Numbered from the stretch's first letter, positions 3,865 through 38,697 are shown. The stretch: 46,001 nt of DNA from Patescibacteria group bacterium (GCA_038057075.1 JBBUDV010000010.1:14417-60417), one strand, 5' to 3'. Program-made: numbers and translations. Notes: a model not told the origin generated them from the letters alone.

Positions 3865-3868
3865 ATAA

Positions 3869-21521: not shown

Positions 21522-23666
21522 TTACTTTTTCCTTCCCTCAATAATCTGCTGAGTTATATTGTTGGGAACTTCTTCATAGTGGTCAAATTCCATAGTGGAA
21601 CTTGCGCGGCCTTGGGTGATTGAACGAAGTTTTGTGGCATAACCGAACATTTCAGACAAAGGAACTTTCGCGTCAACGACTTTGGTATTGCCGCGGTCAT
21701 TCATAGCGTCAATCCTTCCGCGTTTTGAATTCAAATCGCCGGTAACGTCTCCCAAAAAATTAACGGGGGTGATAACCTGAACTTTCATAATCGGCTCCAT
21801 AAGAATCGGTTTTGCTTTTTTGGCGCCTTCCTGCAAAGCCATTGAGCCGGCGATTTTAAAAGCCATTTCAGAAGAATCAACTTCATGGAATGAACCGTCA
21901 TAAAGCGCGACTTCAATGTCAGTCATCGGAAAACCGGCGACAACGCCTTTATCCAGGGCCTCGCGAATGCCTTTTTCAATCGGAGAAATAAATTCCTGCG
22001 GAATCGAGCCACCTTTTATCTGATTAACAAACACAAATCCTTTTCCTTTTTCCAGCGGTTTGACTTTGATTTTCGCATGACCGTATTGTCCGCGTCCTCC
22101 GGACTGCCTGATATATTTTCCTTCACCCTCGGCTTCATCTTTAATTGTCTCCCTGTAAGCGACTTGCGGCCTGCCTGTATTGGCTCCAACGCCAAATTCC
22201 CTCTTCATTCGGTCAATAAGAATTTCCAAATGAAGTTCGCCCATTCCCGAGATAATAGTTTCACCGGTTTCCTGGTCAGTTGAAATGCGGAATGTCGGGT
22301 CTTCTTCCGCCAATCTATGCATAGCAATGCCCATTTTTTCCTGGTCCGCTTTTGTTTTAGGTTCAATTTTAACGGAAATAACCGGCTCGGGAAAAGTAAT
22401 TTTTTCCAAAAGAATCGGTTTTTCCGGATCGCAAAGAGTGTCGCCGGTTGAAGTGTTTTTCAAACCGACAATAGCGCCCAAGTCGCCGGCATACATTTCG
22501 TCAACTTCCTCGCGCTTGTTCGCGTGCATACGGACGATACGGCTGACTCTTTCCTGATTTCCTTTTACGGAATTCAAAATGTAAGAGCCTTTTTTCATAA
22601 CTCCTGAATAAATTCTGAAAAACGTAAGGCTGCCGACAAAAGGATCAGTGGCAATCTTAAAAGCCAAAGCGGTGAGCGGTTCGGAGTCGCTTGTGGTTCT
22701 AATAATTTCTTCTCCGGTTTTAAGATTGACGCCTTTAATCGGTTTAAGTTCCATAACGTCAACAGGGGACGGCAAGTAATCCAAAACCGCGTCAAGCATA
22801 AGCTGAACGCCCTTGTTTTTCAAAGCTGAACCGCACAATACCGGAACCAATTTATTGTTGATTGTCGCTTTTCTCAAAGCGCTTCTTATTTCATCAACGG
22901 TAATTTCTTCTCCATTTAAATATTTTTCCGTTAATTTTTCGTCTTGTTCCGAAACTTTTTCAACAAGTTCGGCTCTTCTTTTTTCAGCTTCCGCTTTTAA
23001 ATGCGCGGGGATTTCTTTTTCAATAATTTTTTCGCCGTGTTCTCCTTCGGAACCGTAGGCTTTCATTTCAATAATATCTATAACGCCTTCAAAATTACCC
23101 TCTAAACCAATCGGAATCTGAATGGCAACGGCGTCCGGAGTCAGGCGGTCTTTAATTGATTGAAATGAATTGTCAAAACTCGCGCCCATCCTGTCCAATT
23201 TATTTATAAAACACATTCTCGGAACTTTATATTTATCCGCCTGATGCCAAACGGTTTCGGACTGCGGTTCAACTCCGGCAACCCCGTCAAAAACAACAAC
23301 GCCGCCGTCAAGAACTCTTAAAGACCTTTCAACCTCCACGGTAAAATCCACGTGTCCCGGCGTATCAATGATATTAATCCTGTGTTCGTATTTCTGCTTT
23401 AGCTCCTGTCTTTCTTTGTCGTCTTTGGCTTTATGGGTCAATCTTATCGGCGTCCAAAAACAAGTCGTGGCCGCGGCGGTAATGGTTATGCCGCGTTCCT
23501 GTTCTTGCTCCATCCAGTCCATAATGGCCTGACCCTCGTGAACTTCGCCGATTTTGTGCGAAATTCCGGTGTAAAAAAGAACCCGCTCGGAAACGGTTGT
23601 TTTACCGGCATCAATATGAGCAATGATGCCGATGTCTCTATATTTTTCAATCGGGTACTGTCTCAA
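21522..23666 (-). CDS. fusA: Elongation factor G (TTG start)
   Basis: [42 protein letters not shown]. Confidence 0.98.
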
Positions 23667-23738
23667 TTTGACTTACAACTTACAACTTACAACTTACAAC
23701 TTTTGTCGTTAGTCGTTGGTCGTTAGTCGTTGGTTAAT
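23667..23738 (-). repeat. Heptamer-repeat hairpin element, copy 1
   Basis: On the minus strand: (C/T)AACGAC x4, AAAA, GTTGTAA x4, GTCAAA; fills the entire rpsG-fusA spacer. Confidence 0.88.
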
Positions 23739-24206
23739 TTATCGTGCAAAATGCGCGAAAGCTCTGTTAGCTTCGGCCATACGATGCACATTCTGTTTCT
23801 TTTTTATGGCAGAACCCTCGTTTTTAAAAGCTAAAATCAATTCTTCCGCCAATTTGTCCGCCATTGGTTTTCCTTTTTTCGCCCTTGCGGCTTCAATAAT
23901 CCACTTGCATGCCAAGAAAAATTTTCTTTCCGGCCTGACTTCCCTGGGCACCTGGTAGTTGGCGCCCCCGACTCTTTTTGAAACCACTTCCAAAAGAGGC
24001 GTTGCGTTTTCCAAGGCCTTTTCAAAAACAGTTGCCGGGTTATCTTTTGTTTCTTTTTGAATTTTGTCGAAAGCGTTGTAAAAAACTTTCTCGGCCGTGG
24101 ATTTCTTGCCGTCTTTCATTAAATAATTAATAAAACGGCCGATTGCGACAGAATCAAATTTAATGTCGGGATTTCGTTCTTTTTTATAATTTCGTTTTCT
24201 TCTCAT
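23739..24206 (-). CDS. rpsG: 30S ribosomal protein S7
   Basis: FINYLMKDGKKSTAEK, RVGGANYQVP, HRMAEANRAFAHF. Confidence 0.98.
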   Translation of the reverse strand: MRRKRNYKKERNPDIKFDSVAIGRFINYLMKDGKKSTAEKVFYNAFDKIQKETKDNPATVFEKALENATPLLEVVSKRVGGANYQVPREVRPERKFFLACKWIIEAARAKKGKPMADKLAEELILAFKNEGSAIKKKQNVHRMAEANRAFAHFAR

Positions 24207-24215
24207 AGTTTCAAA

Positions 24216-24626
24216 TTATTTGGGTTTTTTGGCCCCATATTTACTCCTTTGCTGTTTTCTGTTTTCAACCCCCGTAGTATCCAAAATACCCCTAATTATG
24301 TGGTATCTCACGCCCGGAAGGTCTTTGACTCTGCCGCCTCTTATCACAACAACGGAGTGCTCCTGCAAGGCGTGGCCTTCGCCCGGAATGTAAGCGGTAA
24401 CCTCGGTGCCGTTTGTAAGGCGGACCCTGGCCACTTTTCTTAAAGCCGAGTTCGGTTTTTTCGGAGTCGTGGTAAAGACCTTCAAACACACTCCTCTCTT
24501 AAACGGAGAGACCGAATTAACCGGCTTGTTTTGAATGGTATTAAAATAAAAGCCCATTGCCGGGGATTTTGATTTTTTGGAATTTGGCGTTCTTCCTTTT
24601 TTAATTAATTGGTGGATTGTAGGCAC
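24216..24626 (-). CDS. rpsL: 30S ribosomal protein S12 (GTG start)
   Basis: [38 protein letters not shown]. Confidence 0.98.
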
Positions 24627-24726
24627 GTTTCAAATTAAAAAGTAAAAATGAAAAACTAAAAAACTTTAAATTTCTCGCCTTTTACCCTTATAAAATAAAT
24701 AAAAATCCTTTAACAGGACTGCAAAG

Positions 24727-24756
24727 ATAATAGCAGAATTATTGAGCAGGTGTCAA
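24727..24756 (-). promoter_or_regulatory. Promoter of rpsL-rpsG-fusA
   Basis: TTGACA-N18-TATTAT with TG extension; the -35 box overlaps the 5-bp flank of the adjacent MITE. Confidence 0.6.
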
Positions 24757-24757
24757 A

Positions 24758-24893
24758 CCCCGTCACTAAAAGAAAGACCGCGAAGCTTTTGTATTCCGTG
24801 ATATACCTAAGCAACGTTATTTACCTATTAGATAAGCTGATTAGGTTATAATATGGCTTCTGTTGGGAATATCTGTCTTTCTTTAGTACGGGG
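24758..24893. mobile_element. MITE family B (136 bp) with 5-bp target duplication TCAAA
   Basis: CCCCGTCACTAAAAGAAAGAC...GTCTTTCTTTAGTACGGGG, flanked by TCAAA at 24753-24757 and 24894-24898. Confidence 0.75.
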
Positions 24894-24905
24894 TCAAATA
24901 ATTAT

Positions 24906-24980
24906 TGGTGCGCGCTGAGGGGATTGAACCCCCGGCCTTCTCGGTGTAAACGAGACGCTCTACCACTGAGCTAAGCGCGC
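24906..24980 (-). tRNA. tRNA-Val(TAC)
   Basis: GCGCGCTTAGCTCAGTGGTAGAGC...CTCG-TTTACAC-CGAG...GGTTCAATCCC...GCGCGCACCA. Confidence 0.96.
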
Positions 24981-24984
24981 ATAA

Positions 24985-25581
24985 TTAAAAGCCGTTGTTA
25001 ATTTTCGATTGTTTTTTGATTATCTTTTGAATCCAATTTTCAACAAATATTACAACCACCAGAAAGATTGTTACAAATACGGCGAATATCTTCAAGTCCA
25101 TTTTTAAAATCGCGGTTCCTTCGGCAAACATATAACCAAGAGAAACAAAAAAAACTGTCCAGACAAAGTCGGCGGGAATGGTATATTTGACGAGTTTTTT
25201 AAACGGCATTTTAAAATATCCGCTGGCAATCAAAACAAATCGATTGATTGAAAATCCGAATTTGGAAACAAAAACGTGAAAATAATTTATTTTATTAATT
25301 TTATCTAAAACTGATTTAATTTTTTCCAAATTGAAAAATAAAAATTTTTTCTTTTCAGTTTGTAAAAGTTTCATGCCTATAAACCAAAACAGAACGTCAT
25401 GAATTATCACCCCCGCTAACGCGATAAAAACGGAATCTAAAAAATCTATTGTTCCACTCCTAACCAAAATGCCGGCAAAAATCAAAATAAGTTCGCCTTC
25501 AATAAACATACCCAAAAATATCGCGACATAAGTCAAAATTCTGTGAACCTCGGAAAAATTCATCAAAAAATTCTCAACCAT
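24985..25581 (-). CDS. DedA-family membrane protein
   Basis: FIEGELILIFAG, D..WF.IG, SKF..R..ASG..MPFKK, W..FVSLGY; TACAAT 6 nt before the ATG at 25581 (the longer ORF start runs through a terminator). Confidence 0.85.
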   Translation of the reverse strand: MVENFLMNFSEVHRILTYVAIFLGMFIEGELILIFAGILVRSGTIDFLDSVFIALAGVIIHDVLFWFIGMKLLQTEKKKFLFFNLEKIKSVLDKINKINYFHVFVSKFGFSINRFVLIASGYFKMPFKKLVKYTIPADFVWTVFFVSLGYMFAEGTAILKMDLKIFAVFVTIFLVVVIFVENWIQKIIKKQSKINNGF

Positions 25582-25637
25582 TGTTTTATTGTAACAATTT
25601 AAAAACAAAAATTTCAACAAAATGAATTGTATAAATA

Positions 25638-25668
25638 AAAAAACCGTCCCAATGTACATCGGGACGGC
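25638..25668 (-). terminator. Terminator of the lipoprotein gene
   Basis: GCCGTCCCGATG-TA-CATTGGGACGGT followed by a T-tract on the minus strand. Confidence 0.65.
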
Positions 25669-25685
25669 AATAATAATCTTCAAAC

Positions 25686-26147
25686 CTAATAATGAGCGAC
25701 GTTTTTGAAATCACGGTCGCGCACTATCCAGGTTTCGGTCTGGCGCCGCGAGCTGTCGGCGTAAAAATCTTTCGCAAAACTGCCCGCGACATTGTGCTGT
25801 TTTCCACACTGCTTGACGACCAGAATGGAAACTTTTTTGTACCCTCTGTTTTCGTAGGGGAAATTTTTAACTTTTACTATCTGGCTTTCCCCCTGCCTTA
25901 TATCCCCGATGTGAAGCCCATCCGCCAAAACCGCGAGTTCGCAGTTCCCTGAAATCATATTCTGGACGGTTAAAATGGACTCCGCGTAAAACTTTTCATG
26001 ATAGGGAACGGCATTGGGATAATAAGGGTAGGGCCGAAACAGATACCCGTCAAGACGGATGTCCGGAGTAAAGAAAATTTTCTCTCCGCAAGAACAACCT
26101 GAAAAAAACAGCGCTCCCAGCGATAAAACAATCAGGATTTTCTTCAC
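25686..26147 (-). CDS. Hypothetical lipoprotein-like protein
   Basis: KK, hydrophobic stretch and FFSGC lipobox; SD-like AAGGGGG; consensus promoter upstream. Confidence 0.72.
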   Translation of the reverse strand: MKKILIVLSLGALFFSGCSCGEKIFFTPDIRLDGYLFRPYPYYPNAVPYHEKFYAESILTVQNMISGNCELAVLADGLHIGDIRQGESQIVKVKNFPYENRGYKKVSILVVKQCGKQHNVAGSFAKDFYADSSRRQTETWIVRDRDFKNVAHY

Positions 26148-26192
26148 AATATACCCCCTTTAAAATTTAATTTATGTTAATTTACTGATAAA

Positions 26193-26221
26193 ATTATATG
26201 ACATTAAAATAGTTTTGTCAA
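26193..26221 (-). promoter_or_regulatory. Perfect consensus sigma70 promoter
   Basis: TTGACA-aaactattttaatgtca (17)-TATAAT. Confidence 0.85.
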
Positions 26222-26240
26222 CCCCGCACCTTTCAAATAA
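26221..26240. mobile_element. Solo terminal repeat of MITE family A
   Basis: ACCCCGCACCTTTCAAATA resembles ACCCCTCACCCTTCAAATA; abuts the -35 box. Confidence 0.6.
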
Positions 26241-26277
26241 AAAGCCCTAAATAAATAGGGCTTTAAAATAAACATGC

Positions 26278-27531
26278 TCAGCGCGCAAAAGAATTTATTG
26301 ATTTCAGAGGAAGAGAGATTTCAAACTTAGTCACAAAACGAGATTTGTTATTATTTTCTCCAGTGTCGGCGCTTCGCGCTTCTATGTGGCCGCCGTGCGA
26401 CGTCATTACCGCGTAAACATTCGCCAATCCTAAGCCAGTGCCGTTGTATTTGGTGGTGAAAAACGGGGAAAAAATGTCTTTTAAGTCGTCTGGTTTTATT
26501 TTTTCTCCATTATTTGAAATTATAACTTGAAACAAATTCCGTTCCGGATAAAACTCTGTTTTTACCAAAATTTTTGACGCCTTGGCTTCAACCGCGTTTT
26601 TGATTATATCTTGGACAGACGCGCCGAAGTATCTTTTATCAAGATAAACAACGGCTTTATCAAGATGTTTTTCAAGCTCAAATGAAAATTCAATGTTTTT
26701 TTCTTTCATATTAAGCATTCCGATTGTTTCTTTCAAAAATCTATTGATGTTGTTTTTCTCGAGAACAATGCAATTTGGAATTCTACAAAATGTCATTATC
26801 TCGCTGATGAACTTTTCAAGTTCTAACGACTCTTTGAAAATTATTTTTATTTTCTCTTTGATTTTCTGACGATTGTTTTGATCGGGGATTATATTGAGGT
26901 CTTTGTCTATTTTTTCAAATATGTTTTGAGTAAAACCCCCAATTATTCCCAGTTTATTGCGGAATGTATGCGAAATCCCGGCAGTATGCTTTCCTAAGAC
27001 CGACATATTTTCCATATCTTTAATCCTTCCCAGTGTCTCCTCGTACTTAACCCGTCTCTCAAATTCCTTTCCTATAACCATGGCGCAAAATTTGGTGAGT
27101 TCCTTGATTTTTTTAAAGCAAAGATCGCCGTGTTTTTCAATCGTGTCAATAATCAAAATCCCAATATTAATGTCTTTGTAATACAGCGGCGCGTACAAAA
27201 TTGAATTTATTTTATAAACATCAATCAATCCTTTCATGTACGCGACGCGCAGGTCTTGGGCGGGATGAACGATTATCATCATTTTCTTATTGTTCATCAC
27301 CTGTTCCAAAAATCCTTTACCATACTCATAGGTAATTTCCGTTCCGATGCTGTGGCCTGTTTTGGGAACGCCGGCTCTGATGTAAAAATTTTCTTTTTCT
27401 CTGGCGATAAAACAAACCCGTTCGCATCCGGAAACTCCGGCAGCCAACTCCGCGGCAACATTCATCATCTCGCAAATATCATCGCTTAAAATCAACCTAA
27501 TCAATGCCTCAAAATCCAAATCATTTCCCAT
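26278..27531 (-). CDS. Cytoplasmic GAF-domain sensor histidine kinase
   Basis: GAF-like (SILYAPL..IGIL), H-box ISHTFRNKL, N-box IIKNAVEA, FFTTK..GTGLGL; SD AAGGAG before the ATG at 27531. Confidence 0.88.
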   Translation of the reverse strand: MGNDLDFEALIRLILSDDICEMMNVAAELAAGVSGCERVCFIAREKENFYIRAGVPKTGHSIGTEITYEYGKGFLEQVMNNKKMMIIVHPAQDLRVAYMKGLIDVYKINSILYAPLYYKDINIGILIIDTIEKHGDLCFKKIKELTKFCAMVIGKEFERRVKYEETLGRIKDMENMSVLGKHTAGISHTFRNKLGIIGGFTQNIFEKIDKDLNIIPDQNNRQKIKEKIKIIFKESLELEKFISEIMTFCRIPNCIVLEKNNINRFLKETIGMLNMKEKNIEFSFELEKHLDKAVVYLDKRYFGASVQDIIKNAVEAKASKILVKTEFYPERNLFQVIISNNGEKIKPDDLKDIFSPFFTTKYNGTGLGLANVYAVMTSHGGHIEARSADTGENNNKSRFVTKFEISLPLKSINSFAR

Positions 27532-27633
27532 GATTTTCTCCTTTTTTACTCCCACACCTATACATATTTAATTTTAAAGTGTTCTAATATAAAAAAAGCA
27601 CCTTTTCAGGCGCTTGTCAACCCCGTCATCTTT

Positions 27634-27675
27634 GGTCTCCGCGAGGCGTTAGATATCTAACGCCTCGCGGAGACC
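27634..27675. repeat. Perfect 42-bp loopless palindrome
   Basis: GGTCTCCGCGAGGCGTTAGAT|ATCTAACGCCTCGCGGAGACC. Confidence 0.92.
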
Positions 27676-27694
27676 TTAATTATTCCAATGTCGC

Positions 27695-29446
27695 TTATTC
27701 CTTTTCTTCTATTTCTTTTTTTATTTTTCCAACCAACTCTTCCAAAGAAATTTCTCCTTTTTGTCCTTCTTTATAATGACGGACGTTGACGGTTTTATTT
27801 TTAACCTCTTTGTCGCCGACAACCAATATGTATGGAATTTTTTGAATCTCCGCTTCGCGGATTCTTTTTCCAACCGTATCTTCGTTTAAAAACTCGGCGC
27901 GGATTCCCTCGGCTTTTAACAAATTAAAAATTTCTTCGGCGTATTTTTTATGCGTCTCTCCGACATTTATAATTGTCGTTTGAACAGGCGACAGCCATAA
28001 TAGAAGATGGCCGGCCGTTTTTTCCAAAAGAAGGGCAAAAAATCTTTCAAACGAGCCAAATATCGCGCGATGAATTATCACCGGCGGTTTTTCTTTGCCG
28101 TCCTTGTCAATATAGCTGAGATTGAATTTATCGGCCGAATAATAATCAACCTGAATTGTCGCAATAGTGTCTTCTTTACCATGGACGTTTTTAATTTGAA
28201 TGTCTATCTTAGGTCCATAGAACGTCGCTTCGCCGACCGCCTCGACAAATTTGAGATTTAATTTTTCCAAAACTTTCCTCAAAATATCCGCGCCGTCATC
28301 CCACATTTTTTTATTTTTAATGTCGCCGAATTTTTCCTTATTTTTGAAATCCGGAAGTGAAAGCCGATACCAATAATCGGAAATTTTAAAATCTTTAAAA
28401 ACTTTGTTATGTAAATTAAGAATGCTTTCAATTTCTTTCTCAAGGTGTTTCTGGCTCGCGTAGATGTGAGCGTCATTCTGAGTAAATCCTCGCGCCCTTA
28501 TCATGCCGCTCAAAACGCCTGACCTTTCAAAACGAAACACGTTTCCGAATTCGGCGATTCTCAAAGGCAAATCGCGATAACTCCTGATTTTATGGCTGTA
28601 AATAGAATGGTGGTGCGGACAATTCATCGGCCTCAAATAAAATTTCTCGCCCTCAATTTCTATCGGCGAATACATATCATCTTTGTAATGCGCCAAATGG
28701 CCGGACGTCTTATATAAATTTTCTTTTGCCAGAATCGGCGTTAAAACATGCTGATAGCCGTTCTCTTTTTCCAAATTATATATGTAATCTTCAAGCTGAC
28801 GGCGGATAAAATACCCTTTTGGCAGCCACAACGGCAAACCCTTGCCGATTTTTTCGTCAATCATAAACAAGTCCAATTTTTCTCCCAAAATTCTATGATC
28901 TCTTTTTTCAATTTCCTCTTGAAGTTTTAAATAATCGTCCAATTCTTGTTTGGTTTCAAAGGCGACGCCGTAAATTCTGGTAAGCATCGGATTTTTTTCG
29001 CTGCCGCGCCAATAAGCTCCCGCAATTCTTATTAGTTTAAAAGCGTCCGGGTTGATTTCTTTTGTTGACTTGACGTGCGGCCCCGCGCAAAGGTCGGTAA
29101 AGTCGCCGGATTTATAAATAGTAATGGGGTTTTTTGAAGTATTGAGTTCTTCAATAAGTTCCAGCTTATACGGCTGTTCGGAAAAAAATTTTTTGGCTTC
29201 CTCATACTTAATTTTCTCTTTCTTAAAAACCAAGCCCTCTTTAATAAATTCTTTAATTATTTTCTCAAGCTCCGGCAAATCCTTATCGGAAAAAATTTCC
29301 TTGCCAAAATTAAAATCGTAATAAAACCCGTTTTCAATAATCGGGCCGATGCCCAATTTCGCATAAGGATGCTTTTTCAAAACCGCCATTGCCAAAAGAT
29401 GAGCAAGTGAATGGCGAATCTTTTCAATTTGATTCCTTTTATCCAT
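27695..29446 (-). CDS. thrS: Threonine--tRNA ligase
   Basis: RHSLAHLLA, DLCAGPH, RDHR, RPMNCPHH, FTQNDAH, FYGPKID, IHRAIFGSFERF. Confidence 0.98.
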   Translation of the reverse strand: MDKRNQIEKIRHSLAHLLAMAVLKKHPYAKLGIGPIIENGFYYDFNFGKEIFSDKDLPELEKIIKEFIKEGLVFKKEKIKYEEAKKFFSEQPYKLELIEELNTSKNPITIYKSGDFTDLCAGPHVKSTKEINPDAFKLIRIAGAYWRGSEKNPMLTRIYGVAFETKQELDDYLKLQEEIEKRDHRILGEKLDLFMIDEKIGKGLPLWLPKGYFIRRQLEDYIYNLEKENGYQHVLTPILAKENLYKTSGHLAHYKDDMYSPIEIEGEKFYLRPMNCPHHHSIYSHKIRSYRDLPLRIAEFGNVFRFERSGVLSGMIRARGFTQNDAHIYASQKHLEKEIESILNLHNKVFKDFKISDYWYRLSLPDFKNKEKFGDIKNKKMWDDGADILRKVLEKLNLKFVEAVGEATFYGPKIDIQIKNVHGKEDTIATIQVDYYSADKFNLSYIDKDGKEKPPVIIHRAIFGSFERFFALLLEKTAGHLLLWLSPVQTTIINVGETHKKYAEEIFNLLKAEGIRAEFLNEDTVGKRIREAEIQKIPYILVVGDKEVKNKTVNVRHYKEGQKGEISLEELVGKIKKEIEEKE

Positions 29447-29622: not shown

Positions 29623-32600
29623 TTAAATTAACTCTATAGCCCCCTGGCAAATAAATTTCGGTTCGCTGTCGCGCCAAGACAAGCGGCCTTCGGCGATTAA
29701 AATACTGTTCTCATGCCATAGCGCGGGATTGCGGGAAAGCGTATCCGTGAACACAATCATTTCCAATGTATCGTTAAAATCCTCAAGCCGAGCAAAAATC
29801 ATGGGCTGGCCGTTTTTAGTGACGATTTTTTGTATTTTAGTTATGACTCCCGCTATGCGGCAATTGCCGTTTCCATTTCCATTTTTATTGTTTGAATCGC
29901 TGTTCCCCAACAATTCTTTTATGGGTTTAACTCCGTTTGCGGTTAATTTATGGACATGCTCATTTAGCGGGTGGTCGGAAACGTAAATCCCCAACAATTC
30001 TTTTTCCCACAACAACTTGTCTTTTTTGGAAGCGGGAGAGGATGTTTTAAGATTCAAATGGTCAATGGCGAAACCGGCGCCGAACAAATTATTTTGCGAA
30101 ACCGCTTTGTCTTTTTTCGCGTTTTGGCTGAAACGCAAAATTTCATCTATGTTCGCCAAAAGTTTCCCGCGTTCAACGCTTAATGAATCGAAAGCTCCGC
30201 CTTTAATCAAACTCTCCATAGATTTTTTATTGACGTCTTTGTGGCGGACACGATTCAAAAAATCCTCAACAGATTGGAACGGGCCGCCGCGCTGGCGTTC
30301 ATCAATGACGGCGTTCACGACGTTTTCCCCGACGTTTTTTATCGCCAATAATCCAAAGCGAATATTGTTGTTTTCAGGAGTAAAACTAACGAAGCTTTGG
30401 TTTATGTCTGGCGCCAAAACGTTTATTTTCATTTTTTTGGCTTCGCTTATCAAAAATGACGCTCTCTCGGTGTCTCCGCTGTCGGCGTTAAAAAGCGAAG
30501 TTGTAAATTCAATCGGATAATGTGCTTTCAAATAAGCGGTTTGATAAGCGATTAAAGCGTAACAAGCCGCGTGCGAGCGATTAAAACCGTATTTGGCAAA
30601 CGGCGGGAATAATTCCCAAATTTCTTTGGCAATTTTTTCGTCAATTCCGTTTTTAATCATTCCCAATATCAATCTTTCTTTCTGGGCATCAAGAAGCTCT
30701 TTGATTTTTTTGCCGATAGCTTTGCGAAGAGTGTCGGCTTCGGCCAAAGTAAAGCCGCCCAAGTCGCGGGCGATTCTCATCATCTGCTCTTGATAAACGC
30801 CGATGCCGTAAGTCGATTTTAAAATCGGCTCAAGCTTCGAATGAATGTAAGAGACCTCTTCCAAACCGTGTTTCCTTTTAATGTAATGGGGAATAAGTTC
30901 CATTGGGCCCGGCCTATACAAAGAAACCATAACAATAATATCTTCAAATTCGTTCGGTTTTAATTCTTTTAGATAACGGCGCATTCCCGACGACTCCAAC
31001 TGGAATACGCCCGTTGTATCGCCTTTTTTTAAAAGTTCAAAAGTTTTTTTATCTTCAAGAGGAAGTTCGGAAATTTTAATGTCTTCGTTCCCGTTGTCTT
31101 TAATAAGTTTTAACGTCTCTTCTATAATCGTAAGGTTTTTAAGCCCCAAAAAATCCATTTTTAATAATCCCAAGTCCTCAATGCCGTGCATTTCTATCTG
31201 AGTAATCAAAGTATTGTCCCCTTGCGGAGCCCATTGCAAAGGAACGTAATTTATTAAGGGCTCCGGCGCGATAACGACGCCGCAGGCATGAACTGAAGCG
31301 TGTCTTGCGACTCCTTCCAGATGTTTTGCGGCGTCTATCAGTTTTTTAGCGTCGGGATTGGCATCGTATATTTGTTTCAATTCAGCGACTCCTTCCAATG
31401 ATTCGTTCAAATCCATATGGAAAGGAATCAGTTTGGCGATCTGGTCGCAAAGTCCATAAGTCAAACCCAGGGCCCTCCCCGCGTCGCGAATCGCGGCCCG
31501 CGCCGCCATTGTCCCAAAGGTGATGATTTGAGCGACTTTATCTTCGCCGTATTTTTGTTTTACATAACTAAAGACCTCGTCACGCCTGATGTCGGTAAAA
31601 TCTATGTCAATATCGGGCATCTGAATGCGGTCCGGATTTAAAAACCTTTCAAAAAGCAAATCGTATTTCAACGGGTCAATGTCCGTAATGCCCAAAATGT
31701 AAGAAACCAAACTGCCCGCGGCCGAACCCCGGCCCGGACCCACAACAATGCCGTGATTTTTCGCCCAACCGATTAAATCCTGAACAATCAAAAAATAATC
31801 GGCGAAGCCGGTTTTTTGGATAACTCCCATTTCGTAATCAAGCCGGTCTTTGATTTGTTGAGTGATTTCAGAAAATCTTTGCGGCAGTCGTTCGCTGACG
31901 ATTTTTTCAAGAAAGGAATTCGGGGTTTCGTTTTCGGGCAACGCGAATTTCGGCAAACGGTTTTTGCCGAGGTCTAATTTCACATTGCAGCGCTCCGCGA
32001 TTTTTACGGTATTTTCCACGGCTTCCGGTAAATCCTTAAACGCTTCCGCCATTTCTTCCCCGGGCTTTAAAGAAAAATCATCCACCTTCATGCTAAGCCG
32101 GCTGGCATCGTTAATCGTATTGCCGGTTTGAACAGCCAACAAAATATCATGATAGTCCGCGTCTTCCGGGCGGGCATAATGAATATCCTGGGTCGCCACC
32201 AACGGTATGTTTAATTTTTTTGCGAACGCGATAATCCCCTCATTGGCTTTCCCCACTACGTCAATTTTCGGATGAAAACCTATTTCCAAAAAGAAATTTT
32301 CTTTGCCGAAAATATCCTGGTATTCTTTTATCGTTTCTTCCGCTTTTTTTATTTGATTATTTAAAATCAACTGCGGAATTTCCGCGCCCACGCAGCCGGA
32401 AAGCGCGATTAATCCTTCGTGATGCTGTTTTAAAAGTTCCTTGTCCACTCTCGGCTTGTAATAAAATCCTTCAAGATGCGCCTTTGAAGAAAGCTGGATT
32501 AAATTTTTCCAGCCAATTTCGTTTTCACAAAGCAAAGTAAGGTGATGATAATTTTCTTTTTGTTTTCCGTTACTGTTGATATTTTCATCGTCGGAATGGT

Positions 32601-32856
32601 TTTGATTTTGCGTTTTGACAAGCTGCTTGTTATGCCTGCTGCCCAAAGCGACATACGCCTCCATGCCCAAAATCGGCTTGATGCCGGCCTTGATCGCTTT
32701 TTTATAAAATTCGATTGAGCCGTAAAGATTGCCGTGGTCGGTCAAAGCCAACGCATCCATCCCGAGTTCCTTGGCGCGGGTTATCAAATCGTCAATTTTA
32801 GCCAAACCGTCCAAAAGCGAATAATGAGAATGGGTGTGAAGGTGGACAAATTTCAT
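29623..32856 (-). CDS. dnaE: DNA polymerase III subunit alpha
   Basis: HLHTHSHYSLLDG, LTDHG, GRGSAAGS, FERFLNP.R..MPDIDIDF, YGFNRSH, C-terminal OB fold. Confidence 0.98.
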   Translation of the reverse strand: MKFVHLHTHSHYSLLDGLAKIDDLITRAKELGMDALALTDHGNLYGSIEFYKKAIKAGIKPILGMEAYVALGSRHNKQLVKTQNQNHSDDENINSNGKQKENYHHLTLLCENEIGWKNLIQLSSKAHLEGFYYKPRVDKELLKQHHEGLIALSGCVGAEIPQLILNNQIKKAEETIKEYQDIFGKENFFLEIGFHPKIDVVGKANEGIIAFAKKLNIPLVATQDIHYARPEDADYHDILLAVQTGNTINDASRLSMKVDDFSLKPGEEMAEAFKDLPEAVENTVKIAERCNVKLDLGKNRLPKFALPENETPNSFLEKIVSERLPQRFSEITQQIKDRLDYEMGVIQKTGFADYFLIVQDLIGWAKNHGIVVGPGRGSAAGSLVSYILGITDIDPLKYDLLFERFLNPDRIQMPDIDIDFTDIRRDEVFSYVKQKYGEDKVAQIITFGTMAARAAIRDAGRALGLTYGLCDQIAKLIPFHMDLNESLEGVAELKQIYDANPDAKKLIDAAKHLEGVARHASVHACGVVIAPEPLINYVPLQWAPQGDNTLITQIEMHGIEDLGLLKMDFLGLKNLTIIEETLKLIKDNGNEDIKISELPLEDKKTFELLKKGDTTGVFQLESSGMRRYLKELKPNEFEDIIVMVSLYRPGPMELIPHYIKRKHGLEEVSYIHSKLEPILKSTYGIGVYQEQMMRIARDLGGFTLAEADTLRKAIGKKIKELLDAQKERLILGMIKNGIDEKIAKEIWELFPPFAKYGFNRSHAACYALIAYQTAYLKAHYPIEFTTSLFNADSGDTERASFLISEAKKMKINVLAPDINQSFVSFTPENNNIRFGLLAIKNVGENVVNAVIDERQRGGPFQSVEDFLNRVRHKDVNKKSMESLIKGGAFDSLSVERGKLLANIDEILRFSQNAKKDKAVSQNNLFGAGFAIDHLNLKTSSPASKKDKLLWEKELLGIYVSDHPLNEHVHKLTANGVKPIKELLGNSDSNNKNGNGNGNCRIAGVITKIQKIVTKNGQPMIFARLEDFNDTLEMIVFTDTLSRNPALWHENSILIAEGRLSWRDSEPKFICQGAIELI

Positions 32857-32979
32857 AAAAATTTAATTTTTCATTCCCAGTATAAAATAAATTTTTCCAA
32901 ATGTCTCTATTGACAAACCGGGATAATCACTTATTATTTACCAAAACATTAAAAAGGTCGCTTTTTTAATTAAAAGTTT

Positions 32980-33165
32980 ATGAGTAAAACTTTGAAAATT
33001 TCAAATAAGAAAAGTTGGGGAGAGGGCTTTGATACCGAAGAAATAGCTGAAGGCGGGGACTCAAAAAAGGGGGTTGACGATTTCGGCGAAGAAAGCGATT
33101 CCCCGAGCAAAGACAAGGACAAGGAATTGGACGCTGAATGGAGCGAGGAAGACAATATAAGTTAA
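32980..33165 (+). CDS. Small highly acidic protein
   Basis: 61 aa, D/E-rich; TTGACA-N16-TATTAT upstream (32910-32937) and a GC hairpin downstream. Confidence 0.55.
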   Translation: MSKTLKISNKKSWGEGFDTEEIAEGGDSKKGVDDFGEESDSPSKDKDKELDAEWSEEDNIS

Positions 33166-33186
33166 AAAATGAAAGGTTGATTCTTC

Positions 33187-33220
33187 CCCCGCATAATTTA
33201 TTTATGCGGGGGATTTATTT
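33187..33220 (+). terminator. Intrinsic terminator
   Basis: CCCCGCATAA-TTTAT-TTATGCGGGG followed by a T-rich tail. Confidence 0.7.
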
Positions 33221-33257
33221 ATTGGTGATTTTTAACGCAAAAAGGTAAAATTAAAAA

Positions 33258-35384
33258 ATGGCAAAAAACAAAAAAATTTCTTTCTGGGCAAAATTAGGCG
33301 TTTCCACATTCTTGTTTTTAATCGGGCTTGGAGTTTTCGCTTTTTACAATTTGGCCAATCTCGCCAAAAATTTGCCCGACCCCCAGCAATCAATCAGCTG
33401 GCAGATGTCGCAGTCAACAAAAATTTACGACCGCACCGGGCAAGTCCTTCTTTATGAAATGAATAATCAGGGCAAAAGAACTGTTGTTTCTTTGAGCCAA
33501 ATACCCGATTATGCCAAAACAGCGACAATCGCGGTTGAAGACAAAGATTTTTATACACATTCGGCGCTTGATTGGCGCGGCATCGCGCGTTCAATAATTA
33601 AAAATTTAATAAGAGGCGGTTTTGCGCAGGGCGGTTCCACAATAACCCAACAACTTGCCAGAAACGCTTTTCTCACTCCGGAAAAAACAATCAGCAGAAA
33701 ATTGAAAGAAATTATTCTTTCGTATTGGATTGAAAAATATTATTCCAAAGACAAAATTCTGGAATTATATCTCAACCAAATCAGTTATGGAGCCGGCTCT
33801 TACGGGATTGAAGCGGCCAGCCAAGTTTATTTCGGAAAATCGGCCAAGGATTTGACGCTTCTTGAAGCCGCGATATTGGCCTCGATGCCGCAATCGCCGT
33901 CGTATTATTCCCCGTGGGGTCCGCACTTGGACGAATTACTAAAAAGAAAGGATTACGCTTTGGAACAAATGCGCAATCTCGGATTTATTGACGCCGAAGA
34001 ACGCGACAGAAACACGAAAGAGAAACCGCAGTTTGTTGAAAAAAATATCGGCAATATAAAAGCTCCGCATTTCGTGATGATGGTTAAGGACTACTTAATC
34101 AACAAATACGGCGAGGATTTGGTCAATAAAGGCGGTTTGAAGGCAATCACGACTCTTGACCTGAATCTTCAAAAAATCGCGGAAATGGCGGTTGTAAACG
34201 GCGCAAAAAGAAACAGCGAACTTTATAAAGGCAATAACGCGGCTTTGGTTGCCCAGGACCCTAAAACCGGCCAAATTCTGGCTTTGGTCGGGTCCGCGGA
34301 TTATTTTGACACGGCCAACGAGGGGAACTTCAACGTCGCGGTCCAGGGATTAAGACAGCCGGGGTCAGCCATAAAACCGCTTATTTACGTGACTGCTTTT
34401 AAAAAGGGCTATTCACCGGACACAGTTGTTTTTGACGCGCCTACTGAATTCTCCACAGACAGCCAAAAATGCCCTCTTATAAATATTAATTATTCAAAAG
34501 ATATGGAGAAAGAGTGCTACCATCCGCAGAATTTTGACCAGCAATTCCGCGGTCCGGTGAATTTAAGGAGCGCTTTGGCGCAGTCAATAAACATTCCGGC
34601 GGTGAAAATGCTTTATCTGGCCGGATTAAACGACGTGCTCCAAACCGCTCAGGACTTCGGAATCACCACATTAATTGACCCGAGCCGCTACGGACTTTCT
34701 CTGACTTTGGGCGGCGGAGAAATTAAACTTATTGAGTTAGTAGGGGCCTATTCGGTTTTCAGTCAAGAAGGCGTCAAACACCAGCAGAATTTTATTTTAG
34801 AAGTAAGCGATTATAACAACAACGTTTTGGAAAAATATCTGGACCGCGCGACTCAGGTGATTGAACCGCAATACACGCGACTCATAAACGACATTCTTTC
34901 CGACGCGGAAGCCAGAAAGCCGCTTTATCAGGCAAGTTTTAATCTGACTGTTTTTGACGGCAGAGACGTGGCTATGAAAACGGGGACCACAAACGACCAT
35001 AAAGACGCCTGGACAATCGGCTATTCTCCTTATCTTATCGCCGGGGTTTGGGCCGGAAACAACCATCAGGAGTCAATGCAAAAAAACGCCGGCAGTATTT
35101 TGGCGGCGTTGCCGATTTGGAACGAATTTATGAGTCAAGCCTTAAATAATTTCTCAAATGAAAGCTTTAATAAACCCGAACCCTTTTCAGAAATAAAACC
35201 CATGTTAAACGGCCAATACTTAATAGACAATCAAGTTCACGATATTTTGTATTTTGTTGATAAAAACGACCCATTGGGAGCGGCTCCTCAAAACCCTCAA
35301 AACGACCCGCAATTCAACAATTGGGATTTTCCGGTTCAGGTATGGGTGAAACAAAATTTACCTTTTATTAATCAAATACAATAA
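33258..35384 (+). CDS. Class A penicillin-binding protein (PBP1A family)
   Basis: EDKDFYTH, GGSTITQQL, RKLKE, YLN; transpeptidase SAIK, SIN, KTGT. Confidence 0.95.
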   Translation: MAKNKKISFWAKLGVSTFLFLIGLGVFAFYNLANLAKNLPDPQQSISWQMSQSTKIYDRTGQVLLYEMNNQGKRTVVSLSQIPDYAKTATIAVEDKDFYTHSALDWRGIARSIIKNLIRGGFAQGGSTITQQLARNAFLTPEKTISRKLKEIILSYWIEKYYSKDKILELYLNQISYGAGSYGIEAASQVYFGKSAKDLTLLEAAILASMPQSPSYYSPWGPHLDELLKRKDYALEQMRNLGFIDAEERDRNTKEKPQFVEKNIGNIKAPHFVMMVKDYLINKYGEDLVNKGGLKAITTLDLNLQKIAEMAVVNGAKRNSELYKGNNAALVAQDPKTGQILALVGSADYFDTANEGNFNVAVQGLRQPGSAIKPLIYVTAFKKGYSPDTVVFDAPTEFSTDSQKCPLININYSKDMEKECYHPQNFDQQFRGPVNLRSALAQSINIPAVKMLYLAGLNDVLQTAQDFGITTLIDPSRYGLSLTLGGGEIKLIELVGAYSVFSQEGVKHQQNFILEVSDYNNNVLEKYLDRATQVIEPQYTRLINDILSDAEARKPLYQASFNLTVFDGRDVAMKTGTTNDHKDAWTIGYSPYLIAGVWAGNNHQESMQKNAGSILAALPIWNEFMSQALNNFSNESFNKPEPFSEIKPMLNGQYLIDNQVHDILYFVDKNDPLGAAPQNPQNDPQFNNWDFPVQVWVKQNLPFINQIQ

Positions 35385-35390
35385 AAAGAG

Positions 35391-36509
35391 TTAAGTGGCC
35401 TTAATGGGCATTAAAATATAAAAGTAATTGGGATTATTGGAGGATTTTATAACAGCCGGTTTATTATCGTTGTTTAAACCGATAAAAACATTCTCTTCTT
35501 TTATATTTTTTATCCCGTCAAAAAGAAATTTCCAATTAAAGACGATTTCCACGGGATCGCCTTTGATTTTAGCGGGAATTAAGTATTGATTTTCACCCAA
35601 AGCCGCCGATGATGAATAAATTTCAAGATTTTTTGCGTCTTTTTTAATGCTTATTTTAATTTCATTAAGCCGGTCGGAAAAAGAACTGGTTAATTTTAAA
35701 GCGCTGATTAATTCGTTTTTATTTATATTTATTTCAGTTGAAGTGGAGTTTGGAATAATTGGTTGGTAGTCGGGGAATTCTCCGTTAATAAGCCGAGAAA
35801 CCAACTCAAATTTTTCCGATTTGAATAAAATTTGGTTGGAATCAAAAAAGATGGCGATTTTCTCATTGGTTTTATCCGGAATAATTCTGATTAATTCGTA
35901 GATTGTTTTTAATGGAATAATGGTTTTAAATTTTTTATTTATATTTGTTTTAAAATCGCTTTCATTGATTAATTTTTCCGCCAATCTAAAACTATCGGTA
36001 GCCGCCAATTTAATAAATCCATTTTGAAAATCAAATAAAATTCCGTTTAGTTCCGGCCGGAGCGCGGAAATTTGGGCGGCGTTTATAACTAATAAAAAAG
36101 CCTCTTTTAAAAGCGCGGATTCTATTTCTATAAATTCGTTAATATTTTCAAGTTTTGGAATAATTGGAAATTCTTCTTTTTTAATTCCTTGGATTTTCGC
36201 GTTGTAATTTTCAGTTTTAATTATTAAATTATTATCTTTAATTTCTAGATTAATTCTTTCATTTTGAAGATTATTAATAATAGTTGAAATAATATTTATT
36301 GGGATGGTTAATTCTCCGTCTTTAATTATTTTAGCGGGTATAAAACTTACAGCCGCGATTTCCAGATTAGTCGCTGAAATTTTTATTTTATTATCAAACG
36401 TCTCTAAAAGAAAATTTCTTAAAATCGGCAAGGTTAAATTTTCAGAACCGATTTTTCCTAAAATATTCAAACCTTCCTTTAAATTAGATTTTAAAACCAC
36501 TAATTCCAT
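35391..36509 (-). CDS. dnaN: DNA polymerase III beta clamp
   Basis: LPIL, ATNLE, RPELNG, ATDSFRL, SRLINGEFPDY, ILMPI. Confidence 0.96.
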   Translation of the reverse strand: MELVVLKSNLKEGLNILGKIGSENLTLPILRNFLLETFDNKIKISATNLEIAAVSFIPAKIIKDGELTIPINIISTIINNLQNERINLEIKDNNLIIKTENYNAKIQGIKKEEFPIIPKLENINEFIEIESALLKEAFLLVINAAQISALRPELNGILFDFQNGFIKLAATDSFRLAEKLINESDFKTNINKKFKTIIPLKTIYELIRIIPDKTNEKIAIFFDSNQILFKSEKFELVSRLINGEFPDYQPIIPNSTSTEININKNELISALKLTSSFSDRLNEIKISIKKDAKNLEIYSSSAALGENQYLIPAKIKGDPVEIVFNWKFLFDGIKNIKEENVFIGLNNDNKPAVIKSSNNPNYFYILMPIKAT

Positions 36510-36521
36510 ATATTTATTTTT

Positions 36522-36661
36522 TTATCCCCATTCCTACTATTACTATTATATATATATTAGTAGTAGTGGTAGTAGAGAGGTTGATTTTTGTTGATAAGTT
36601 AAAAAATTATAACAAACAACTTAATATTTTTTAATAAAACTTGTTAAAAAGTTGTTGATAA
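36522..36661. other. Replication origin oriC (DnaA boxes, DnaA-trios, AT core)
   Basis: Lies between dnaA and dnaN; boxes TTATCCCCA (36522-36530) and TGTTGATAA (36589-36597, 36653-36661); TAG-type trios 36558-36575; TATATATAT core. Confidence 0.85.
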
Positions 36662-36662
36662 A

Positions 36663-38021
36663 TTACTTATTATTAATTATTTCTTTTATTAAAATTATTT
36701 TATTATTTAATTTTTGGTCGGAATTAAGTTGTTTATTTATTTTTCCCCACGCGTGAATCACGGTTGTGTGGTCTCTTTTCCCCAACTTATAACCAATATC
36801 AGTGTAAGACATACCTAATAAATCTTTAAGTAGAAACATCGCGATTTGGCGCGGCTCAACAACCTCTTTTCTTCTTGAATGGTCTATAATATCTTTTTCC
36901 GTCAATTCAAAAAAATTAGCGATTACCTGGATTATTTGGCTTGGAGTGATGTTTTTAAAGGATTGTTCGGTGGTTTTATTGATAATTTCCTCAATTAATT
37001 TTTGACTTAATTCAATATTTTTAACTTCTTGATAAAAAAGAATTTTATTCAACACCCCTTCCAACTCGCGGATATTTCTTTGAATTTTAGTGGCGATAGT
37101 TTGAGTGATGTTGTCCGGCAGAAACGAATTTTTTTCTTGAAGTTTTGTTTTAATAATCGCCAAGCGCATTTCAAAATCCGGATACCCGATGTCGGCTATC
37201 ATGCCGCCGGAAAAGCGCGACCGAAGGCGCTCTTGTAAAACCGGAGTGGCTTGGGGCGAGCGGTCGGAAGAAATTATTATTTGTTTATTGGCTTCATAAA
37301 GCGAGTTGAAGGTGTGAAAAAATTCTTCTTCGCTTCTTTCTTTTCCCGCGACAAATTGAATGTCATCAATAATCAACACGTCAATATTTCGGTACCTTTC
37401 TTTTACATCTTCCATTCTTTTGTTTCTTATCGCGGAAACGACGTCATTGACGAATTTTTCCGAAGGAACGTATCTGACTTTAATTTTATTTTTATAATCG
37501 CTTTTTATTTCATTGCCGATTGCCTGAAGAAGATGGGTTTTTCCCAAACCGGTGCCGCCGTAGATAAAAAACGGATTGTATTTTTTACCGACTTCTTTGA
37601 TGATGGCCTGGGCCGCGGCATAACAAAGTTCATTTGAAGAACCGACAATGAACGATTTCAAAGTATATTTCGGATGAAGATTGGTTTCGGGGTCAATTTT
37701 AAATTCTTCAAAAGAATTTTGCGGCTGTTTTTTGTCGGACACGTTATGTATGGTTATTTTTTGTTCAACAACTGCGGGAATAACCATATAATGGACTCGT
37801 CTTACCGAATTATCCAAGGAGCACAGCGCGTCATAAATATTTTTATGGTATTTGTTTTGAACCCATTCTTTCGCGAAGTTGTTTCCAAGCGCGATTATAA
37901 CTTCACCGTCGGGGTTTTTTTCAATAAGCCGGCTGTTTTTGAACCAGGTTAAAAAATTCGGCCGGGAAATCTGAATTTCCAATTCCGCCAAAACCGATTG
38001 CCAAAGTTTTTCAGGTTCCAT
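36663..38021 (-). CDS. dnaA: Chromosomal replication initiator DnaA
   Basis: YNPFFIYGGTGLGKTHL, IDDIQF, EEFFHTFN, RLRSRF, NIRELEG, RDHTTV. Confidence 0.98.
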   Translation of the reverse strand: MEPEKLWQSVLAELEIQISRPNFLTWFKNSRLIEKNPDGEVIIALGNNFAKEWVQNKYHKNIYDALCSLDNSVRRVHYMVIPAVVEQKITIHNVSDKKQPQNSFEEFKIDPETNLHPKYTLKSFIVGSSNELCYAAAQAIIKEVGKKYNPFFIYGGTGLGKTHLLQAIGNEIKSDYKNKIKVRYVPSEKFVNDVVSAIRNKRMEDVKERYRNIDVLIIDDIQFVAGKERSEEEFFHTFNSLYEANKQIIISSDRSPQATPVLQERLRSRFSGGMIADIGYPDFEMRLAIIKTKLQEKNSFLPDNITQTIATKIQRNIRELEGVLNKILFYQEVKNIELSQKLIEEIINKTTEQSFKNITPSQIIQVIANFFELTEKDIIDHSRRKEVVEPRQIAMFLLKDLLGMSYTDIGYKLGKRDHTTVIHAWGKINKQLNSDQKLNNKIILIKEIINNK

Positions 38022-38149
38022 GGTTTGATTTAATAATTTATAACTAAATAATAACTGACTAACAAAGTGTAACTATTATACTTGGTTTTTATTTTTATAA
38101 AAGCCAGCGGAAAAAGAAAAATTTTCGAATAACCTGGGGATAACTCCGT

Positions 38150-38425
38150 TCAAGCATTTTTTCGCAAATACGCCTACGCTGAATGAAAAATAATTTCGCT
38201 CATAACGATAAAATGCCGCCCTGCTACACGGGCACCCGGAATTTTATCTACTCGCTTCAAAATTTTTCTATTCAGCTACGGCAATATTTGCTGCTAAAAA
38301 TGCTCTCACTTCTGGAAAACAAAAACTTTAACGTATCCGGGAGAATTTTCTACTCGTTCATTAAATTTTAAACATTTTACGGCTGTATTCGCTATGAAAA
38401 TATGCTCACTCTTTGGAAATAAAGT
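38150..38425. repeat. Degenerate repeats (two direct copies of about 90 bp, one shorter inverted copy) upstream of dnaA
   Basis: CCGG..ATTTT.TCTACTCG..TACGGC..TATT.GCT..AAAAT..CTCACT..TGGAAA at about 38236 and 38337; about 38150-38220 matches the reverse complement. Confidence 0.6.
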
Positions 38426-38480
38426 AATAGGGTTGTGTTTTAGTGATTACTTTATTACAATCAACATTAAAGTCAATATA

Positions 38481-38562
38481 TAAATTAACCAACGACCAAC
38501 AACTAACGACCAACGACGAAATTTAAAAGTCGTAAGTCGTAAGTCGTAAGTCGTAAGTCAAA
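38481..38562 (+). repeat. Heptamer-repeat hairpin element, copy 2
   Basis: TAAATTAAC, (C/T)AAC(G/A)AC x4, spacer, GTCGTAA x4, GTCAAA, then the TTG of rpmH. Confidence 0.88.
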
Positions 38563-38697
38563 TTGTCCACAACTTATCAACCCAGCAAAAGAAAAAGAAA
38601 AAGAACCCACGGCTTCTTAAAAAGAAAAAGAACCACAGGAGGCCGCGCAACCGTCCAAAGAAGGCGGCAAAAAGGCAGGAAAAAGGTGGTAGTGTAA
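38563..38697 (+). CDS. rpmH: 50S ribosomal protein L34 (absent from the ORF track; TTG start)
   Basis: Translates [44 protein letters not shown]; divergent from dnaA. Confidence 0.95.

Follow-up and report, generated by a model that had tools for sequence, protein, structure and literature searches.

Heptamer-repeat hairpins before the TTG start codons of fusA and rpmH in a Patescibacteria genome, putative gene-less copies of a mobile cassette

Direct repeats of the heptamer TAACTGA have been described upstream of start codons in Beggiatoaceae, Cyanobacteria and Bacteroidetes, where they end 1 nt before the start codon (PMC4679880). According to the accessible text of that study, most of the 169 repeat sets in Beggiatoaceae lie a few nucleotides upstream of start codons in the forward orientation, few of the repeat regions have a ribosome-binding site, and the repeats are reversed inside open reading frames (ORFs). 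The regions include ribosomal-protein operons and fusA, and start-abutting heptamer repeats at this gene are thus already known from Beggiatoaceae (PMC4679880). We analysed a stretch of 46,001 nucleotides (the window) from a Patescibacteria group bacterium (GCA_038057075.1, JBBUDV010000010.1:14417-60417), in which a hairpin made of two inverted heptamer arrays directly precedes the TTG start codon of fusA (elongation factor G, EF-G) and, at a second site, that of rpmH (ribosomal protein L34). The role of heptamer repeats, the most frequent long simple repeats in bacterial genomes, has been open since the cyanobacterial short tandemly repeated repetitive (STRR) sequences and the TAACTGA repeats. 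The genome of the window (582 kb, 29 contigs, 38% G+C) is called G000 below and its relatives carry handles of the same kind; G001 belongs to the same genus and G006 to another genus.

The hairpins resemble the TAACTGA repeats in several respects. Both consist of 7-nt units (2-6 copies there, four per arm here), end near the start codon (6 nt before the TTG here), have a fixed orientation and lack a Shine-Dalgarno (SD) sequence. Both occur in ribosomal-protein operons, including upstream of fusA, and are patchily distributed between relatives. Within ORFs, both run in the reverse direction, since stops occur in every frame of the forward strand (PMC4679880). In contrast, the TAACTGA repeats are direct, a single set of the 170 being inverted, and no structure is predicted for them, whereas each array here has an inverted partner and the pair forms a 28-bp-class hairpin that reaches from stop codon to start codon, with the units YAACRAC and GTYGTAA. 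The copies described here also have non-repetitive termini in common, and a link to gene cassettes and rRNA is not reported in the accessible part of that study (PMC4679880).

The 23S rRNA intervening sequences (IVSs), as described for Coxiella burnetii in the accessible part of the source (PMC4990558), likewise have a stem of inverted ends, an optional S23p (four-helix-bundle, TIGR02436/PF05635) ORF in the loop and a horizontally spread, selfish-looking character, and sister copies of our hairpins lie in the 23S genes of G000 and G006. They differ in that the two copies studied here are in mRNA contexts, have no ORF and are oriented opposite to the rRNA copies. Heptamer repeats in a 5' leader with a long hairpin are also described, in the available text, for hmw1A/hmw2A of Haemophilus influenzae, where RNase III affects downstream expression; there, one arm is a phase-variable simple sequence repeat (SSR; 11 or more units) and the other a G-rich non-repeat, whereas here both arms are fixed four-unit arrays with no length variation seen (PMC12721329). 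Dispersed near-identical copies with shared termini, present or absent at orthologous sites, are features of elements of the miniature inverted-repeat transposable element (MITE) type, and the hairpins show these features. Rickettsia palindromic elements (RPE), Correia and REPIN elements are small, non-coding, palindromic multi-copy insertions in operons, RPE also being found in-frame in genes; they have defined unique sequences, and the REPINs have a RAYT transposase. Unlike these, the hairpins here have arms built from heptamers of many different sequences, and a transposase was not identified. No description of heptamer-array hairpins around TIGR02436 genes or at Patescibacteria stop-start junctions was found at the title and abstract level, with subscription journals not covered.

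In transcript orientation, both sites read TAA-ATTAAC-(YAACRAC)x4-loop-(GTYGTAA)x4-GTCAAA-TTG, and the sequence that the initial annotation had given for 23741-23664 and 38481-38565 was correct base for base, including the TAA stop codon of rpsG. Copy 1 (23664..23741, minus strand; delimited by sequence and fold) begins with the stop codon of rpsG and ends with the start codon of fusA. It occupies the entire 72-nt spacer between rpsG (S7; 23739..24206, minus strand) and fusA (21522..23666, minus strand), both identified by Pfam. The leading TAA (23739..23741, minus strand) is the rpsG stop, as indicated by Pfam and by a stop position shared with relatives, and also comprises the outermost 5' bases of the conserved flank TAAATTAAC. 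On the same strand follow the 5' arm with the four units CAACGAC, TAACGAC, CAACGAC and TAACGAC (23705..23732), the loop AAAA (23701..23704) and the 3' arm of four identical GTTGTAA units (23673..23700), which makes G-U pairs with the 5' arm at unit position 3 and contains TAA in all three frames. The fusA TTG (23664..23666, minus strand) forms the last bases of the conserved flank GTCAAATTG.

Copy 2 (38481..38565, plus strand; delimited by sequence and fold) lies in the leader of rpmH (38563..38697, plus strand), from which dnaA is divergent; both genes were identified by Pfam. Its TAA (38481-38483, plus strand) terminates no gene and pairs, in the predicted fold, with the rpmH TTG start codon (38563..38565, plus strand). 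The 5' arm consists of CAACGAC, CAACAAC, TAACGAC and CAACGAC (38490..38517), the loop is GAAATTTAAAA (38518..38528), and the 3' arm holds four identical GTCGTAA units (38529..38556), all on the plus strand. The two copies are identical at 70 of 78 aligned positions, with an additional 7-nt indel in the loop, and both 9-nt flanks are identical. The loops, of 4 and 11 nt, contain no TIGR02436/PF05635 ORF. No GGAG, GAGG or AGGA was present between the array and the TTG at either copy, and neither site matched an Rfam family.

Both sites were compared with assembled contigs from four DNA runs, in which rare variants are dropped. The fusA hairpin was unchanged in the X2 and X9 contigs, and a 3-nt-shorter variant of the copy 2 loop was present in contigs of two other runs. 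No 7-nt indels (unit-number variants) were seen at either site in the contigs of the four runs, where rare variants would be invisible. A contig from a relative (X10, ~7% differences) could be aligned to the sequences flanking the fusA hairpin, whereas ~74 letters at 23660-23733 remained unaligned; this suggests replacement by another hairpin of similar length.

RNA folding agreed with the earlier proposal that the two arrays can pair with a periodic internal mismatch. The predicted folds had energies of −24.9 kcal/mol for copy 1 (z −4.6) and −23.6 kcal/mol for copy 2 (z −5.4), with 0 of 200 shuffles as stable, and the stem carries a mismatch of 1-2 nt once per seven positions. Across eight copies, 87% of the cells of the helix pair, compared with 11-46% in slid controls, and some GC/AU exchanges were present. 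Four pairs had changed on both sides, and the covariation score was reached by 14 of 500 shuffles. The sense strands of seven mRNA copies had fold energies of −21 to −29 kcal/mol and their complements −13 to −37 kcal/mol; the G006 rRNA copy in its own orientation had −37 kcal/mol. Copy 1 is more stable as sense RNA and copy 2 as antisense RNA, which is not decisive. When hairpins of every unit type next to a start codon were compared (19 in all), the sense strand folded less stably than the antisense strand in 14 and more stably in 5, a difference that is not significant (p = 0.09).

For the genome-wide analysis of G000, genes were called with a crude caller (604 genes, 88.5% coding) that missed the small genes rpmH and rpmJ, which were added by eye. 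Tandem Repeats Finder reported 253 period-7 rows out of 832, and at a score of at least 40 there were 127 rows of period 7, versus 2 of period 6 and 15 of period 8. After the rows had been merged and the A/T-only units dropped, 140 heptamer arrays with many different units remained. These comprise 65 arrays within ORFs whose reading frame they leave open, 44 in intergenic DNA and 31 across the boundary of a gene. Compact inverted pairs, defined as two heptamer arrays with a gap of at most 60 nt, number 33; 15 of them touch both neighbouring genes within 16 nt and 5 are inside coding sequences (CDSs). A GTYGTWR search gave 46 matches, 20 of exactly 28 nt (four units) and none longer. The complete 3' end GTAAGTCAAATTG after a GTYGTAA array occurs three times in the 582 kb, each time at a gene start, and chance is therefore excluded. 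The third copy (contig C11 7413-7493, minus strand; ends AAGTTAAC ... GTCAAA-TTG) lies directly before a Peptidase_S26 (signal peptidase) gene with a TTG start. Its unit variation is compensated, with CAACAAC opposite GTTGTAA and CAACGAC opposite GTCGTAA.

Genes directly behind such arrays in G000 include mreB, ssb, ftsW, dnaJ, topA, secG, rnc, a Mur ligase gene and tRNA genes. They have no common function, and the tie to translation genes that had been proposed did not hold. The description of the genome as SD-poor was borne out, with an SD-like motif at 50 of 587 crude gene starts (8.5%) against a background of 5.6%. Of 16 GTYGTA(A/G) arrays with at least two units, seven are in CDSs, six lie within 25 nt of a protein start and point towards it, and another points towards a tRNA gene. 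The 23S gene contains one, the last has no called gene within 60 nt downstream, and none points towards the end of a gene. Six of the seven arrays in CDSs are antisense, the sense strand having TAA in all frames.

Near-identical copies are present at other loci and in other genomes. The fusA copy of G000 is identical at 75 of 78 positions to a copy before rplM in G006, a different locus in a different genus, and at 74 of 78 positions to the fusA copy of G009. In the genes flanking the latter pair, only 46-48 of 100 third codon positions agree. Copies sharing the 3' end were also found in G044 (TTG; the ORF behind it is presumably 2-hydroxyacid-dehydrogenase-like, judging by its N-terminal translation), before lysS in G245 (TTG one base further) and before tuf in G208 (ATG five bases further). 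The non-repetitive 9-nt flanks are common to copies at five loci in three genomes. An exact 23-mer scan of all GTDB species genomes returned two loci besides G000, apparently the G009 fusA and G006 rplM copies, and a 20-mer with a degenerate end was present in 5 of 301 genomes of the order, G000 included; the sub-family is therefore narrow. The third copy in G000 and the near-identical copy at another locus in another genus indicate a dispersed element and not local slippage, as the initial annotation had argued.

Orthologous junctions were examined in relatives (28 rpsG-fusA junctions read out of 30 loci, 29 infA-rpmJ junctions and 30 rpmH loci). At rpsG-fusA, 17 of the 28 spacers are shorter than 60 nt, all with an ATG start, and eleven of these measure 3-9 nt (e.g., TAA-ATT-ATG). 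The other 11 are of at least 60 nt, with clear 7-periodic hairpins in three (G000, G009 and G004), all with a TTG start. These three represent two unit types, the G009 element being that of G000. An unrelated palindrome followed by an ATG start is present in G001. At rpmH, the start codon is ATG at 27 loci, GTG at 1 and TTG at 2, and the GTYGTAA-type hairpin was found only in G000 among the 30 loci. In many relatives (loci L033-L060), the rpmH start is preceded, at a distance of 6-8 nt, by the end of a conserved CTTGTTTTT..-10-like block, and the message is therefore probably almost leaderless, judging by this arrangement. A promoter-like block in the window (TTGTGT, 17 nt, TACAAT; 38433..38461, plus strand) resembles that of the relatives. 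The consensus promoter scan listed none at either hairpin and none on the plus strand from 38083 to copy 2, so the promoter reading relies on this likeness.

Three relatives keep an ATGA stop/start overlap at infA-rpmJ. The same junction in G000 (contig C11 21900-22030) contains a hairpin of the same unit class as the two copies, flanked by an 8-nt direct duplication, TTATGAAG, which retains the infA stop and the rpmJ start, as expected for an insertion with target duplication. The sequence AGGAGGTTATGA upstream of this hairpin was considered as an SD plus ATG and ruled out, as it is the end of infA. The G001 junction has a hairpin of a different unit, followed by ..CCAAA-TTG. In G004, the spacer of 270 nt is filled by an ORF of 84 amino acids (locus L098 1723-1977) with heptad-like charged/hydrophobic spacing and no NCBIfam match.

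The fusA and rpmH frames are each open for only two codons before the TTG (TAA GTC AAA TTG), and the TTG aligns with residue 1 of the orthologues at 28 (fusA) and 30 (rpmH) related loci. The two TTGs are therefore the start codons of EF-G and L34, in agreement with the initial annotation. When the rpsG-fusA and infA-rpmJ junctions were pooled, TTG starts were present behind 5 of 20 spacers of at least 60 nt, compared with 0 of 37 shorter ones (Fisher p = 0.004, relatives not being independent and G000 and G009 sharing one element). In G000 alone, the corresponding figures were unconvincing, with TTG at 5 of the 24 starts next to an array and at 70 of the 587 starts of the whole genome, as given by the crude caller. 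The T of the TTG may be the last base of the element, or a change from ATG to TTG may have been selected since UUG pairs with UAA/UAG.

Gene-bearing forms of the element are also present. All four TIGR02436 four-helix-bundle genes of G000 lie between heptamer arrays. One of them (contig C1 28469-28828) has arrays of the same unit class as the two copies, with the 3' end GTAAGTCA.., and ends ..GTCGTAAGTCATTTATC-ATG before the next gene. In G024, the 456-nt rpsG-fusA spacer contains a GxxExxY gene (TIGR04256; 98 bits, cut-off 35) with a heptamer arm on either side; no GxxExxY gene was found in G000. The array-flanked TIGR02436 genes and the GxxExxY cassette in this same spacer confirm, for these genomes, the link between tandem repeats and IVS-type genes named in the initial annotation, and they support its suggestion that the two copies are an empty version of an element with a gene at other sites. 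The 23S rRNA gene of G000 (contig C1, 40237 to contig end) is interrupted by two heptamer hairpins, 108 nt and 87 nt long (C1 40237-41001; locus L109 938-1702), at positions ~283-288 and ~312 of the Rfam large-subunit (LSU) model, the second of which spans TTAAC to GTTAA. The G006 23S gene has a hairpin with ends as in the two copies near model position 695. All three rRNA copies are opposite in orientation to the mRNA copies. Small GIY-YIG genes and an RNase III gene are present in G000; the latter (contig C7 7068-7769) is itself directly preceded by a heptamer hairpin (6969-7063).

We consider it probable that the two hairpins are empty copies, lacking a gene, of a mobile, IVS-like palindromic cassette that is tolerated by virtue of its fold. 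Anatomy, copy family, presence or absence at orthologous sites, gene-bearing relatives and rRNA copies are observed; the way of moving, the behaviour of the RNA and the coupling that we infer would be as follows. The class would consist of palindromic insertion elements of 60-110 nt, each arm an array of about four units of a 7-nt repeat, and in the full form the loop would carry a small gene, TIGR02436 in G000 and GxxExxY in a relative. Its members are found in G000 in the 23S rRNA gene, between tRNA genes, at operon junctions, in leaders and in-frame in CDSs in the stop-free orientation; they would land in all kinds of transcribed DNA and persist only where harmless. At rpsG-fusA, it would have inserted into an ancestral spacer such as TAA-ATT-ATG; the shortness of that spacer (3-9 nt) would explain why the element now spans the stop codon to the start codon, with the downstream gene now beginning with the TTG at the 3' edge of the element (..AAA-TTG). 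At rpmH, it would have inserted between the conserved promoter and a formerly almost leaderless ATG. Tolerance may stem from self-folding of the insert, which would place stop and start side by side at the base of the stem, the UAA being able to pair with the UUG. Judging by the footprint of ribosomes, one that reaches the rpsG stop codon would unwind the outer part of the stem, so that the fusA start becomes accessible. In this way, termination-reinitiation coupling would survive the insertion in an SD-poor genome.

Several observations weigh against a mobile and merely tolerated element. The GTYGTAA arm points toward the downstream gene in all seven readable intergenic cases, with none reversed (rpmH and rpmJ were entered by eye in this count because the crude caller had missed them), and a purely neutral insertion should be unoriented. 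The narrow band of sense-strand energies hints at a constraint at the RNA level, and the high conservation between the G000 and G009 copies could equally reflect purifying selection, i.e., function. There was no general target-site duplication among the 33 hairpins (mean flank match of 5.15 nt, versus 4.88 nt in controls), and the single 8-nt duplication at infA-rpmJ could be due to chance (control: ~3% per pair). Neither a transposase nor a recombinase or other mover was identified, although no systematic transposase search was made; the genes of the cassettes (TIGR02436 and GxxExxY) and the small GIY-YIG genes include no known transposase. Coupling is also inapplicable to rpmH, because this gene has no upstream ORF.

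The same polarity, together with the antisense placement of six of the seven arrays in CDSs, would be expected of a dedicated translation-initiation or control element, in which the SD-free array would act as a leader, standby or protein-binding site and the distal arm would mask it until the upstream gene is translated. Such a role has been proposed for the TAACTGA repeats of Beggiatoaceae in the available text (PMC4679880), and the SD-poor genome, the narrow sense-strand energies and conservation of the G000 and G009 copies beyond neutral sites are consistent with it. We nevertheless regard it as unlikely, since the same polarity is found before a tRNA gene, which has no start codon, the hairpin is patchy at orthologous junctions, a spacer of 3-9 nt being sufficient in most relatives, related copies are also found in rRNA and within CDSs, and the downstream genes share no function. 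The non-significant difference in stability between the sense and antisense strands of the 19 hairpins also argues against it. The hairpin could alternatively be an IVS of mRNA, whose cleavage by RNase III would split the rpsG/fusA message or trim the rpmH leader to a near-leaderless 5' end at the TTG. The same type of hairpin is found in the 23S rRNA genes of G000 and G006, G000 encodes RNase III, and the rpmH message of relatives looks nearly leaderless. RNase III excision is established for the Coxiella IVS (accessible text of PMC4990558), and processing of the heptamer hairpin in the 5' untranslated region of hmw1A by RNase III raises expression in H. influenzae (accessible text of PMC12721329). 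This possibility appears doubtful, as the stems have a mismatch or 2x2 loop every 7 nt, which makes acceptance by RNase III uncertain, and the three rRNA copies are oriented opposite to all mRNA copies. Moreover, a leaderless message beginning with UUG would be unusual, judging by work in E. coli.

A more elaborate proposal, to which we give similarly little weight, is a portable stop-hairpin-start junction, in which UAA and UUG would be paired at the base of the stem and the ribosome would be handed across the 72-nt fold in a shunt-like form of coupling. A single hairpin family would then have two uses in SD-poor, ultra-small bacteria, in rRNA as an IVS cut by RNase III and in mRNA as a module for coupling or processing, and the recurrent change from ATG to TTG would have been selected and not be a by-product of insertion. 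Independent local microsatellites formed by replication slippage, as in phase-variable SSRs, are very improbable. Each 3' arm is internally homogeneous, and many bacteria have heptanucleotide repeats as their most frequent class of long SSR (cited in PMC4679880), but the 9-nt non-repetitive flanks shared by copies at five loci in three genomes, the occurrence of the arms in inverted pairs, an array length of at most four units and the lack of unit-number variants at either site in the contigs of the four runs (from which rare variants are dropped) argue against slippage. That the hairpins in the rpsG-fusA spacer and before rpmH act as intrinsic terminators or attenuators of transcription would fit their length and intergenic position, but it is scarcely credible, as neither stem is followed by a U-tract (GTCAAATTG directly follows), both stems are rich in A/U and mismatched at regular intervals, no terminator was listed at either element by the scan, and the genes directly downstream, fusA and rpmH, are essential.

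In this one tiny genome, the hairpin family is found in five settings: within 23S rRNA, in the gaps between tRNA genes, where stop and start codons meet in essential operons, in-frame in enzymes and around four-helix-bundle genes. Near-identical copies are also present at different loci in different genera. If the two sites are empty copies of a mobile hairpin cassette, this would tie rRNA IVSs, start-abutting heptamer repeats and a very large protein family of unknown function into one mobile system. The rpsG-fusA junctions with and without the insert, with TTG and ATG starts, are test objects for how tightly coupled operons without an SD tolerate or exploit a structured insert of 80 nt at a start codon. 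Caution is also warranted in annotation, as these elements can give rise to TTG start codons and to unusual peptide inserts in genes of Patescibacteria.

In-frame arrays were noted in CDSs at contigs C29 10252-11265, C6 61928-63076 and C27 59-823, and in the window at 16797-16826 and 44289-44319. Such arrays encode peptides such as IMNYELRIKN...IIHNSKFII, and we take the ORFs that contain them, from their translations, to resemble phosphomannomutase, TsaD and MnmA. In the MnmA-like ORF, the array replaces a native segment of approximately equal length, and G208 has an array of different units at the same protein position (locus L078). On contig C12 (~3850-4120, minus strand), a tRNA-like gene has an insert of ~130 nt in the anticodon-loop region; the insert contains a second complete tRNA-like sequence between the inverted repeats CCCTCACCTTT and AAAGGTGAGGG, with a heptamer hairpin just 5'. 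Two A/T-only arrays were observed close to the rpsG-fusA genes in the window. One (24632-24662, AAATTAA x4.4) lies 5 nt upstream of the GTG start of an ORF at 24216-24626, probably rpsL, and the other (21499-21522, ATTAAAA x3.4) directly follows the fusA stop.

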